IMG/VR virus record: IMGVR_UViG_3300045996_001841
Location: 1 to 59,291 of that record
Direction: 5' to 3' (one strand)
From: a virus
Taxonomy: Duplodnaviria > Caudoviricetes
DNA: 59,291 nucleotides
The position numbers were made by a program, and so were the translations under genes. Below are positions 1,918 through 6,876 of the stretch, in pieces. Numbering within the stretch: the stretch's first letter is position 1; each line of letters opens with the position of its first letter. The notes under the pieces are model-generated. The model made no database searches. It worked only from the letters and a program-made list of their open reading frames with translations, and was not told where the DNA came from.

Positions 1918-1946
1918 TTGACACGTGCCGCGCGTCCGTTTATATT
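1918..1946 (+). promoter_or_regulatory. sigma70-type early promoter
   Basis: TTGACA-17 nt-TATATT. Confidence 0.85.
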
Positions 1947-4739: not shown

Positions 4740-5062
4740 CACCCCGCTTTTATCGCGCGGAGGGGCCTGTCCGATCGCTCCTGGTCCCGTGTCGGTTCGT
4801 CTGTTTTGCGAATCGTGAGATCACGACGGGGAAAGGCAAACGCACCAGGACGCGCGTGCAATGTGTCGCGTGGGAGGCCTGGAACCCCGATCCCACCCTC
4901 GAGGCCCACATGGCACGGCTGCCGGGATCGGGATCGTTCTACTGGTTGAATGCCATTCGCGTCCTGGTGGCGGCAAAGGCGGCAATGCGCGCCGATCCCA
5001 GCATTCACCAGATCAAGCTTGAAACGATTTCAGGACAGGAGATTGGCCGGTTGTATCGCTGA
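4736..5062 (+). CDS. Early hypothetical protein
   Basis: GGAGG SD and ATGA overlap (MTPRFYR...). Confidence 0.7.
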   Translation: MTPRFYRAEGPVRSLLVPCRFVCFANREITTGKGKRTRTRVQCVAWEAWNPDPTLEAHMARLPGSGSFYWLNAIRVLVAAKAAMRADPSIHQIKLETISGQEIGRLYR

Positions 5063-5122
5063 AGTCCTTGCACACGACAGACGAGCCTCGAGGCTCGTCT
5101 GTCGAATGGAGGGATCAGCCCT
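5056..5122 (+). ncRNA. Repeated structured intergenic RNA motif, copy 2
   Basis: Same flanks as copy 1 around a different perfect 30-nt palindrome at 5075-5104. Confidence 0.75.
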
Positions 5123-5142
5123 TCGACACAAAGGAGCAGCAG

Positions 5143-5481
5143 ATGGCAAGCGAACACGAAAACCTGCACGAGTTCTACGCGGCCACGAAGGCACAGCAGC
5201 CGGCAGAGGCCTGCCGGATCGCCTACACGATCGAGCTGACTGCGGACGAATACCGCTCAGCCGAATACATGAGTGCTCGAGGGTATCTCGGCTGCGTCAC
5301 GGAGCACGCCACGGAAACCGAGGATCGGGACGATGGATCCGTGGTTCTCAAGTTCACGGAGTCCGATGCCTGGAACGTGCAGCAGGTGTGTGAAGACGAC
5401 GAGCACGCGGTGTGGAGCCTCACTACCCCGTCCACGTCCCTCGGACAGAAGTTCCAAGCGTTCCTCGATCAAATTGTCTGA
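5143..5481 (+). CDS. Acidic early hypothetical protein
   Basis: AAAGGAG SD before ATG 5143 (MASEHENL...). Confidence 0.7.
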   Translation: MASEHENLHEFYAATKAQQPAEACRIAYTIELTADEYRSAEYMSARGYLGCVTEHATETEDRDDGSVVLKFTESDAWNVQQVCEDDEHAVWSLTTPSTSLGQKFQAFLDQIV

Positions 5482-5485
5482 GGGG

Positions 5486-5514
5486 TTGACAGAAAGCCTG
5501 TCGTTTGCTATATT
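5486..5514 (+). promoter_or_regulatory. sigma70-type early promoter with extended -10
   Basis: TTGACA-17 nt-TATATT, with TG two bases before the -10 box. Confidence 0.85.
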
Positions 5515-5556
5515 GCCTGTTAGAGACGACGGAGCAAGGCACAGCAGGAGGCCGGC

Positions 5557-5868
5557 ATGGTTGAAACACTCCCCGTGATCTTTCGCGCTGGCAAGGAACA
5601 CGGCCAGATCTGGATTACGGCCGTCTTCCCCACATTGCAGGGGACCGATGATCGGAACACGTTCACGATCTACCAGCACATAGGGCAGCATGGGGCCGGC
5701 CGCTACGAGTGGTATCGCCGGACCCGGCCGGCGCGCCCCTCGGAGTATGCGGATTTGCTCAAGGAACTGCGCGGGATCTACGAAACGCCGGGACCAGGAG
5801 ACACGCCAGCGATCCGCCTCGAGGTTCGACAGCGCATGCACGCGAGTTACCGCCGACAGCGAAGCTGA
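5557..5868 (+). CDS. Phage early hypothetical protein
   Basis: AGGAGG SD; VIFR...AVFP...HIGQH...TRPA.P.EY.DLLKEL pattern that I recognise from small phage proteins. Confidence 0.75.
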   Translation: MVETLPVIFRAGKEHGQIWITAVFPTLQGTDDRNTFTIYQHIGQHGAGRYEWYRRTRPARPSEYADLLKELRGIYETPGPGDTPAIRLEVRQRMHASYRRQRS

Positions 5869-5873
5869 AAGGA

Positions 5874-5932
5874 GGCCGAAACCCTCGAGCAGTCCTCGAG
5901 GGTCCGCACGTGAAGCGTGCGCTGATGAGGCT
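5874..5932 (+). ncRNA. Hammerhead ribozyme, type II
   Basis: GGCC-GAAA-stem III (CCCUCGAG/CUCGAGGG)-UC-stem I (CGCACG/CGUGCG)-CUGAUGA-GGCU. The full catalytic core is present, with predicted GUC cleavage after 5904. Confidence 0.92.
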
Positions 5933-5937
5933 ACACA

Positions 5938-6063
5938 ATGAAAACAGGTTACACGCGACTCAGGAAACGTGACTGGTATGTGCAGGGTGGGTTCAGCAAT
6001 CCGCGCCTCTTTCGCCGGATGCGCGGCGGCGTGTGGCACTACTACCGGCTGACCTACTACTAG
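5938..6063 (+). CDS. Small basic/aromatic protein (41 aa)
   Basis: MKTGYTRLRKRDWYVQGGFSNPRLFRRMRGGVWHYYRLTYY; GAGG SD lies inside the ribozyme 3' end. Confidence 0.6.
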   Translation: MKTGYTRLRKRDWYVQGGFSNPRLFRRMRGGVWHYYRLTYY

Positions 6064-6120
6064 AGAGAGAGGGCGCAATCCCGCGCCGGCAGTCCGGCCC
6101 GAATGGGCTGAGGTGACGCC

Positions 6121-6876
6121 ATGAAGAAAACAGACAAAGACAAGCAGGACGCGATCGATCAACTGCGGGAATGGCTGAAGCCCGGGGATACGGTCTATAC
6201 GATCCTCGAGCACGTGTCCCGGTCCGGCATGAGTCGCACGATCCGCGTAGTCGTGCCTTACGTGAGGGACGACGGCAGGATCGATCACTTGCACCCCAAT
6301 TACAGCGTAGCGAAGGCGATCGGCGCGCGGCGCAAGGGCGACGGGATCGTCATGGGCGGCTGCGGGATGGATATGGGCTTCGCCCTGGTCTATGAGCTGT
6401 CCTCCGTGCTCTATGGGCATCTCCGTTGCGAGGCCTGCGGCAAGTATCCCAGCGGGGAATACCGGACGATCATCGATGCAATGATTACCTCGTCGCGTGG
6501 CGCGGATCTCGTGATCACGTGCGAACACTGTCAGGAGCGGCTGTCCGGCGGCTATCAATGCCTCGGCAAAGGCAAGTGCCCCTCGAACTATCACGTCAAC
6601 CATCGGGATACGATCCAGTGCCCCGGAACCGAGGTGTATAACCCGGACGGGCCCAACACCGGCCATCGCTGTTACTGGCAGCGGGGGATCGGGTGGGTCA
6701 TTCCGAGTGATGAAACGGATCCGGCGCGTTTGGTCAATCCCGATCCGAGTGATGAGGCTTGGATCCGGATCTGTCCGACGTGCAACGGCACGGGCCGGAT
6801 TCCCAACCCCGAAGGCCCGGAGCGGTTCGATTTGCTCCACACGGACGGATACGCGCTCCGTCATAGGTGGCTGTAA
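6121..6876 (+). CDS. Phage hypothetical protein with Cys-rich insertions
   Basis: LKPGDTVYTILEHVSRSGMSR...GCGMDMGF core plus several CxxC motifs. Confidence 0.8.
   Translation: MKKTDKDKQDAIDQLREWLKPGDTVYTILEHVSRSGMSRTIRVVVPYVRDDGRIDHLHPNYSVAKAIGARRKGDGIVMGGCGMDMGFALVYELSSVLYGHLRCEACGKYPSGEYRTIIDAMITSSRGADLVITCEHCQERLSGGYQCLGKGKCPSNYHVNHRDTIQCPGTEVYNPDGPNTGHRCYWQRGIGWVIPSDETDPARLVNPDPSDEAWIRICPTCNGTGRIPNPEGPERFDLLHTDGYALRHRWL

Follow-up and report, generated by a model that had tools for sequence, protein, structure and literature searches.

Between two co-oriented genes in the early region of a soil phage lies a short sequence that raises the question of whether the transcript cuts itself there and, if so, whether the cut affects translation of the RNA that follows. 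The genome is IMG/VR virus record IMGVR_UViG_3300045996_001841 (Duplodnaviria; Caudoviricetes), the whole of which, 59,291 nucleotides (nt), is referred to here as the window, and the element in question occupies positions 5873-5933 of its plus (+) strand. A preliminary description placed a type II hammerhead ribozyme at this site, interleaved with the translation signals of an open reading frame (ORF) of 41 amino acids (aa). At the level of sequence, the element is confirmed as a complete type II hammerhead in which all conserved core positions are present and in register. It is probably an active ribozyme within the polycistronic early transcript of a complete soil phage, and the matches to covariance models, the folds and a large family of phage relatives that bear on this reading are described below together with its possible consequences for the neighbouring genes.

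Architecture of the Element

The element has the topology of the type II permutation, in which loops close stems I and III and stem II is left open (Table 1). The sequence, the Rfam family RF02276 (Hammerhead_II) and a covariance model named R1, built from phage relatives, agree on a type II hammerhead with a complete core that is located between phage genes on the coding strand, as had been proposed. The motifs named in the preliminary description, CUGAUGA, GAAA and a GUC ending at 5904 (5902-5904), were all located in register in the sequence and in the alignments. The conserved core positions of RF02276 (C3 U4 G5 A6 N7 G8 A9, G12 A13 A14, the A15.1-U16.1 pair and a residue other than G at H17) are all present.

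The helices are perfect. Stem III pairs A5881-G5889 with C5895-U5903 around the loop CAGUC; it had been described as 8 base pairs long, a count that becomes 9 with the inclusion of A15.1-U16.1 (A5881-U5903). The count of 6 Watson-Crick pairs in stem I (5905-5910 with 5916-5921) holds, with one further U5911.G5915 pair closing the loop, (U)GAA(G). Stem II consists of 4 pairs (GGCC/GGCU), three G-C and one G.U, and its closing pair G10.1-C11.1 corresponds to G5929-C5877. The residue that flanks stem II on the 5' side is A5873, and the 3' arm of stem II is followed by ACACA and then by the ATG at 5938.

Table 1. Features of the hammerhead element and its surroundings, in window coordinates.
Feature	Position	Strand	Basis or remark
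Stem II, 5' arm, GGCC	5874-5877	+	Sequence, Rfam and R1 alignments, fold
Core G12 A13 A14 (GAA)	5878-5880	+	Sequence, Rfam and R1 alignments
Stem III hairpin, ACCCUCGAG-CAGUC-CUCGAGGGU	5881-5903	+	9 pairs including A15.1-U16.1 (A5881-U5903); sequence, fold, R1
Predicted cleavage site, C17 = C5904, scissile bond C5904/C5905	5904-5905	+	Position in Rfam and R1 alignments
Stem I hairpin, 17 nt, CGCACG-UGAAG-CGUGCG	5905-5921	+	Sequence, fold, R1
Core C3 U4 G5 A6 U7 G8 A9 (CUGAUGA)	5922-5928	+	Sequence, Rfam and R1 alignments
Stem II, 3' arm, GGCU, followed by conserved A5933	5929-5932	+	Sequence, Rfam and R1 alignments
Shine-Dalgarno (SD)-like AAGGAGG	5869-5875	+	Sequence; ends in the flanking A5873 and GG 5874-5875 of stem II
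GAGG (G8, A9, G10.1, G10.2), possible SD for ATG 5938, 7-nt spacer	5927-5930	+	Sequence
41-aa basic, aromatic ORF, translation uncertain	5938-6063	+	ORF list; no relatives
Sigma-70-like candidate promoter, TTGACA-17 nt-TATATT, TG before second hexamer	5486-5514	+	11/12 consensus matches
Upstream gene, 103 aa, no known family	5557-5868	+	No Pfam or PHROG match; TGA 5866-5868
Downstream gene, 251 aa, PHROG 12365 (function unknown)	6121-6876	+	PHROG match, E 2.2e-26

Support from Covariance Models, Shuffles and Folds

The scan against hammerhead models that the preliminary description had suggested gave a divided result. Among 4227 Rfam families compared with all 59,291 bases on both strands, RF02276 aligned to the element over its full length (model positions 1-66) with 33.1 bits and an E-value of 0.0069, and this was the sole Rfam match at E ≤ 5 in the whole window. 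The score lies under the gathering cut-off of this family, which is 37 bits; at gathering thresholds no Rfam family was found in the window, and RF02276 shows only with E-value reporting.

A descriptor written for this analysis (GAAA, stem III hairpin, UH, stem I hairpin, CNGANGA, stem II) found one site in the window. Dinucleotide shuffles gave any loose match in 1 of 300 cases and a match as good as that of the element in none of the 300. The minimum-energy fold and the centroid fold of the 80-nt stretch 5866-5945 are both exactly the hammerhead three-way junction, with an energy of -29.3 kcal/mol and a z-score of -3.14, and 1 of 200 shuffled sequences was equally stable.

R1 was built from an alignment, A1, of 110 distinct elements from which the window element was excluded. 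The model matches the window element over its full length (positions 1-58) with 61.6 bits and an E-value of about 6e-15, inside the family range of 31.1-77.4 bits determined from 145 matches in 100 of the fetched loci. With filters off, the next best site in the genome scores 11.9 bits; this site, at 5081-5129, is a 28-nt palindrome and was rejected as a ribozyme. Judged by these scores, the window element is an ordinary family member and the sole one in its genome. Neither Rfam nor R1 found a second hammerhead in the whole window, and no duplicated copies of the hammerhead hairpins were found by a repeat search around the site, which returned only short matches based on CTCGAG. The preliminary description had proposed that duplicated hairpins help to cut the early transcript into several units; this is not supported, since a sole ribozyme allows at most one cut.

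A Family of Short-Loop Phage Hammerheads

Relatives were first obtained by running the descriptor on 30 viral loci that encode relatives of the downstream 251-aa protein, which gave three hammerheads of the same build, two in locus L007 and one in L010. A fourth, loose match in L008 was disregarded, its loops being 47 and 64 nt long. Viral contigs were also scanned with a pattern taken from the core and stem II of the window element, which yielded at least 120 stretches, and the family counts given here rest on the matches listed. Over the fetched loci the descriptor found 152 hammerheads among the matches listed, with 10 in L039, 8 in L093 and 7 in L087 as the most per locus, and stem II has 4 pairs in 145 of these 152. 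De-duplication left 121 elements besides that of the window, of which 85 were matched by the pattern and 36 lie outside it and are referred to as independent relatives.

The relatives have a uniform build. C17 is present in 120 of the 121, an A directly 5' of stem II (position -1) in 116 (32 of the 36 independent ones), and an A directly 3' of stem II (position +1) in 94. Stem II has 4 pairs in 31 of the 36 independent relatives. The stem I hairpin is 17 nt long in 103 of 121 relatives (76 of the 85 pattern-matched and 27 of the 36 independent ones), and the first loop base of the 27 independent hairpins is always U. The window element shows every one of these features, namely the 4-pair stem II, the 17-nt stem I hairpin, the loop-initial U and the flanking A's, and its loop UGAAG recurs in other members, for example in L244, L138, L043 and L102. 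The helices of A1 show double changes at 15 of 17 pairs, and 97.9% of the cells are paired; these changes show diversity and are not independent proof of the structure, because the sequences were selected for pairing.

In the consensus of RF02276, loop I has a length of about 10 nt and the 3' tail is conserved; in the window element, loop I is 3-5 nt. In 16 loci, 5 of 53 descriptor-found hammerheads reach the Rfam gathering score, and a sixth Rfam match lies outside the descriptor set. As far as these counts go, the element belongs to a very abundant phage subgroup that lies mostly below the Rfam cut-off and is recognized by its 4-pair stem II, its 17-nt stem I hairpin and its flanking A's.

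Two further observations were made on the relatives. Core position 4 is C in place of U (CCGAUGA) in 3 of the 121, at L007 491-553 and at L039 173-236 and 410-473, and in these array members activity may be weakened or lost. The exact stem I of the window element (CGCACG...CGUGCG, with GUC before and CUGA after) occurs in 33 viral-contig stretches (L236-L267 and L096), where it is combined with differing stems II and III. This recurrence suggests that phage hammerheads have exchanged stem I sequences or converged on them.

Tertiary Contacts

In most type II members, loop I and the 3' tail are joined by at least 4 pseudoknot pairs. This pseudoknot is critical for fast cleavage at low Mg2+, and shortening it makes cleavage 20- to >100-fold slower at 0.5 mM Mg2+, as stated in the available part of PMC3088659; the same part also reports many hammerheads without any known tertiary contact. 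A loop I-tail pseudoknot was rejected for the window element, in which the 3-nt complement is at background level, and complementarity between loop I and the tail is no higher across the subgroup than in a control region. The conserved flanking A's and the U...G ends of the loop suggest that some other contact is made.

A different sequence is enriched behind the ribozymes. NUCAG occurs within 14 nt after stem II in 39 of 136 elements and in 4 of 136 in the control region. In all 39 of these tails the N is able to pair with core N7 (A or G with U7, G with C7), so that the tail complements core C3-N7 and not loop I; examples are found in L093 at 3333, 4838 and 5696, in L128 and in L152. This "anti-core" tail could refold the 3' product after cleavage. 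The window element does not have it.

Occurrence at the Locus

The only near relative of the locus in the phage collection is a 57-nt match to a Sphingobium phage, and a search with the 103-aa protein gave one weak locus. Relatives of the 251-aa protein are encoded in 30 viral loci and 80 from metagenomes, with a full-length identity of at most 44%, and none of these loci has a hammerhead or the small ORF at the same place. The closest full-length relatives, in L156-L158, have 43-44% identity; in L156 the homologue follows a different gene, of 113 aa, and a spacer of 40 nt, and neither a ribozyme nor the small ORF is present there. R1 found hammerheads in few of 100 loci with relatives of the 251-aa protein, namely L007 (two), L010/L199, L014/L228, L178 and L217, and their positions vary. 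The element is therefore sporadic, like a mobile intergenic cassette. L178 features, beside one full copy, a truncated copy at 2410-2466 in which stem III, stem I and CUGAAGA-GGCU are kept and the 5' arm and GAAA are missing. This truncated copy is located about 35 nt before the homologue of the 251-aa gene and has the same GGCU-GAC-AUG junction as the hammerhead of L217.

Contigs of four soil DNA runs were compared over the region. In runs X1 and X2 the region is identical to the window, and these runs may be the source sample. Run X3 gave one 151-nt contig with a depth of 3.3 that covers 5818-5933, with nothing aligned beyond 5933. Two differences outside the ribozyme are listed for it, A5856G and an insertion of GAAA behind 5866, and four near the ends of the piece are unlisted; no listed change falls within 5874-5903, and 5961-6011 is without cover.

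Genomic Setting

The window is a whole 59-kb phage record with direct terminal repeats and is estimated to be 100% complete. The left half carries plus-strand small genes of unknown function followed by DNA polymerase A, helicase and primase, and the right half carries minus-strand genes that include the large terminase. No tRNAs were found in the window. The transcript that carries the ribozyme probably starts at the candidate promoter in Table 1, and the scan found no terminator-like sites between this promoter and the ribozyme. A second sigma-70-like candidate promoter in the early region, at 1918-1946 (+), has identical hexamers and likewise 11/12 matches.

The guanine-cytosine (GC) content at the three codon positions is 0.63/0.50/0.74 in the 103-aa gene and 0.59/0.47/0.77 in the 251-aa gene. 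A minus-strand ORF of 535 aa (5257-6864) without a PHROG match was taken as a shadow of the plus-strand genes. The corresponding values for a 147-aa ORF at 4950-5393 are 0.68/0.62/0.48, unlike those of the neighbouring genes, and this ORF is probably not the true reading frame there.

The stop codon of the 103-aa gene is separated from stem II by 5 nt. A close upstream stop is also a trait of the relatives: an upstream ORF of at least 60 open codons ends -1 to +26 nt from stem II in 105 of 121, and the gap is -1 to +3 nt in 87 of these 105 (loci L036-L155, L007, L178 and L199). Often the stop is a UAG whose A and G are, respectively, the conserved flanking residue and the residue with which stem II begins. 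Since the upstream stop abuts stem II, a terminating ribosome would cover the 5' arm of the ribozyme.

The most frequent 8-mer of the genome is the palindrome CCTCGAGG, with 36 copies as compared with 2.1 expected from shuffles. Its sites include 3464, 3483, 5086, 5817 and 5894, and both arms of stem III contain CTCGAG. In three genes that were checked the palindrome reads xxC-CTC-GAG-Gxx (Leu-Glu), and the excess may in part reflect codon and dipeptide usage. At 5076-5103, about 400 nt upstream of the candidate promoter, a 28-nt sequence, GACAGACGAG-CCTCGAGG-CTCGTCTGTC, forms a perfect palindrome. It is not followed by a U-tract and could serve as a protein-binding site or form an RNA hairpin.

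Translation Signals

The preliminary description read AAGGAGG as an SD on the 5' arm of stem II. It overlaps stem II by only 2 nt and is retained in the X3 relative; however, no ATG, GTG or TTG follows before 5890, and it is therefore not a working SD. GAGG and the ATG at 5938 had both been placed on the 3' arm. G5929 and G5930 are indeed part of stem II, whereas G8-A9 belongs to the core and the ATG is located 5 nt past the stem.

The 41-aa ORF has a codon-position GC content of 0.50/0.48/0.76, like its neighbours, and the other two frames are not coding-like; if the ORF is discounted, the intergenic gap is 252 nt. A comparison with 5.8 billion clustered proteins returned only the ORF itself, recorded on 3 contigs, and no Pfam or PHROG family was found. 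The SD spacing and the GC content at the third codon position thus agree with an SD-led gene, whereas conservation does not (self-match only, absent in L156). On balance the ORF is modestly favoured as a real gene. A GTG at 5969 was considered as an alternative start in the spacer 5933-6120 and was rejected, as AGGA is only 3 nt before it and the frame is not coding-like.

Proposed Pathway

The proposed pathway would begin when the 3' strand of the element (CUGAUGA-GGCU) has been transcribed, at which point the three-way junction would fold and cut between C5904 and C5905. The mRNA of the 103-aa gene would thereby be separated from an RNA comprising the 41-aa ORF and the 251-aa gene. Of these two products, the upstream one would have the 9-pair stem III hairpin at its 3' end and terminate in a 2',3'-cyclic phosphate, and the downstream one would have a 5'-OH immediately at the base of the stem I hairpin. 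From then on, the products would be held by the 4-pair stem II alone and would for that reason separate, and GAGG 5927-5930 would then be freed from the ribozyme core and stem II. We infer from the arrangement that the element cleaves in vivo, that the hairpins stabilise the new ends and that translation of the 41-aa ORF is affected. Hairpin ends would be expected, from general knowledge of RNA decay, to slow exonucleases and 5'-end-dependent RNases.

Similar roles have been proposed for other hammerheads. Hammerhead arrays that flank prophage genes have been proposed to process long phage transcripts (PMC3088659, in the part available), and the processing of polycistronic RNAs into pieces that differ in stability or translation efficiency is a published, unproven idea (PMC3088659; PMC6765202, both in part). 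Three type II hammerheads of Desulfovibrio vulgaris cleave in vivo, at least one of them beside genes of bacteriophage origin, and their products carry 2',3'-cyclic phosphate and 5'-OH ends, according to the accessible portion of PMC8782182.

Evaluation of Alternative Explanations

Several results weigh against an active ribozyme at this site. The Rfam score of 33.1 bits does not reach the cut-off of 37. This is weak counter-evidence and counts for little, because just 5 of the 53 descriptor-found relatives in the 16 loci reach that score. No loop I-3' tail pseudoknot was found, the longest Watson-Crick complement in the window being 3 nt (GUG/CAC). The relatives behind A1 were in large part (85 of 121) fetched with a pattern of core and stem II derived from the window, and the R1 score is therefore partly circular. 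No diverged orthologue was recovered at the locus, and covariation is seen at the family level only. When 181 nt are folded together, the 3' arm of stem I is paired with upstream coding sequence in the minimum-energy fold, and in the 480-nt stretch 5521-6000, which begins at the predicted transcript start, the hammerhead helices can be imposed at a cost of 4.1 kcal/mol. The competing fold is slightly more stable in long constructs, and cleavage would therefore depend on co-transcriptional folding and ribosome traffic.

A match by chance, or a pair of hairpins (stems III and I) that acts at the DNA level or as a terminator and merely resembles a hammerhead, is extremely improbable. The abundance of CTCGAG palindromes in the genome, with the 36 copies of CCTCGAGG against 2.1 expected, and the sub-threshold Rfam score would fit such an origin, but none of the 300 shuffles held an equal motif, R1 sets the element (61.6 bits) far from the next best site (11.9 bits), and the 13 core positions stand in exact register relative to three helices. 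Moreover, neither hairpin is followed by a U-tract, and the terminator scan was empty at the site. It is also improbable, though less so, that the element is a true hammerhead by descent that is slow or inactive in vivo, a decaying mobile intergenic cassette without a present role. The truncated copy in L178, which lacks the 5' arm and GAAA and precedes a homologous gene, shows that such elements decay, and the window element is the sole copy in its genome and is missing from the closest relatives of the flanking gene. Its intact core positions, its three perfect helices and an R1 score of 61.6 bits within the range of 31.1-77.4 do not agree with decay. The missing loop I-tail pseudoknot could be taken as a sign of decay as well; however, the whole subgroup is without it, and yet it forms arrays of up to 10 copies per locus and shows compensatory changes in every helix.

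A further explanation, that of the preliminary description, adds a function to the ribozyme and makes it a translational switch for the 41-aa ORF, in which the SD is buried so that folding and 30S binding are mutually exclusive. Either cleavage and the loss of stem II would turn translation on, or early ribosome binding would block cleavage. This explanation is plausible but on the whole unlikely, and a regulatory coupling of the ribozyme to translation of the 41-aa ORF is correspondingly doubtful. GAGG 5927-5930 is located 7 nt before the ATG at 5938 with G5929 and G5930 paired in stem II, and the ORF has the coding-like GC pattern of its neighbours and fills what would otherwise be a 252-nt gap; on the other hand, GAGG is simply G8-A9-G10.1-G10.2 and is present in 17 of the 36 independent relatives regardless of a start codon, so that, found in about half of them, its presence alone says little. 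No homologue of the ORF was found, the closest relatives of the next gene do not have it on their upstream side, and the X3 alignment ends at 5933. Models of short constructs raise the probability that G5929 and G5930 are unpaired from 0.01 to about 0.3 on cleavage, whereas in long constructs the mean accessibility of the SD changes only modestly, from 0.19 before cleavage to 0.34 after it, and a stem of 4 pairs is a weak barrier to a ribosome.

The relatives speak on both sides of the switch. In the R1-based set of 136 elements, 13 have a start codon within 8 nt of stem II when ORFs from 40 aa upward are counted, and 11 when the minimum is raised to 60 aa, although for some of these ORFs the true start is probably located downstream of the first in-frame start. 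The usual layout is a different one, in which the next ORF of at least 60 aa has its own SD and starts 21-30 nt after the ribozyme (46 of 104, as compared with 5 of 104 within 8 nt). A chance ATG that opens at least 40 codons at such a spacing would be expected in roughly 2-3% of cases in DNA of 64% GC, by a rough inferred estimate. The clearest case is in L217 (905-982), a locus that encodes a relative of the 251-aa protein, where N7 is G and the core reads CUGAGGAGGCU, that is AGGAGG, with an ATG 3 nt after stem II and 5 nt after AGGAGG. A broader form of the proposal, in which the ribosome-binding site (RBS) of the next gene is formed by the core together with the 3' arm of stem II in about 8-10% of the 136 relatives and in the window, with self-cleavage competing with initiation, is slightly less likely still. 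If true, intercistronic RNA processing and the onset of translation would be coupled by a natural ribozyme switch, with a second layer of control exerted by the ribosome that terminates on the upstream gene 5 nt before stem II. No natural link between a hammerhead and an SD in phages was found in the literature searched. The preferred reading remains that of an active hammerhead that cuts the early transcript once, with or without an effect on the 41-aa ORF.

Comparison with Known Systems

Type II hammerheads have been recognized between phage genes since 2011, and a 2019 review still calls their purpose undefined (PMC6765202); the statement of the preliminary description that such hammerheads occur between phage genes with unclear roles agrees with this literature (PMC3088659, as far as its available text goes; PMC6765202). 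The window element adds nothing categorically new and is of modest interest, its only unusual trait being a core that possibly doubles as an RBS. It is nevertheless a clean single-copy case in a complete phage genome with a candidate SD inside the ribozyme, and a link between cleavage and translation could be tested with few constructs. The Rfam threshold misses about 9 in 10 of the subgroup members examined, and annotation pipelines probably under-report such ribozymes. The regularities of the family, that is the stop codon that abuts stem II, the hairpins at both new ends and the core-complementary tail, provide handles on how these ribozymes fit into phage operons. The subgroup and its regularities may already be covered in Dataset S1 and Figures S4-S5 of PMC3088659.

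The type II hammerheads of bacteria, prophages and metagenomes (PMC3088659, in the portion available; RF02276) share with the window element the permutation, the 13 core residues and the G10.1-C11.1 pair, and that type II set has the same setting between co-oriented phage genes. The window element differs from them in its lack of a pseudoknot, its loop I of 3-5 nt as compared with about 10 nt, and its score of 33.1 bits, below 37. The hammerheads of Desulfovibrio vulgaris that were detected by cyPhyRNA-seq (PMC8782182, accessible part) are, like the window element, of type II, and at least one of their loci is drawn beside genes of bacteriophage origin; the activity of the window element is predicted.

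The closest likeness in build is to the short-loop phage subgroup itself. The 4-pair stem II, the 17-nt stem I hairpin with U...G loop ends, the A flanks, C17 after GU and the position right after a stop codon are all shared. The window element departs from the subgroup in the G.U pair that ends its stem II (GGCU), which is rare in the set, and in the 5-nt gap to the upstream stop, which is -1 to +3 in 87 of 105 relatives. The next start codon follows 5 nt after stem II, whereas it usually follows after 21-30 nt, and the element is a single copy with no "anti-core" tail, whereas arrays are common in its relatives.

A functional parallel is provided by the synthetic insulators of the RiboJ type, which were engineered from a plant satellite RNA ribozyme. 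In these insulators, a hammerhead placed before the RBS removes the upstream RNA and leaves a 5' hairpin, so that expression is independent of the upstream context. The window element would work alike; however, its arrangement is natural, and its candidate SD is located inside the ribozyme rather than after it.

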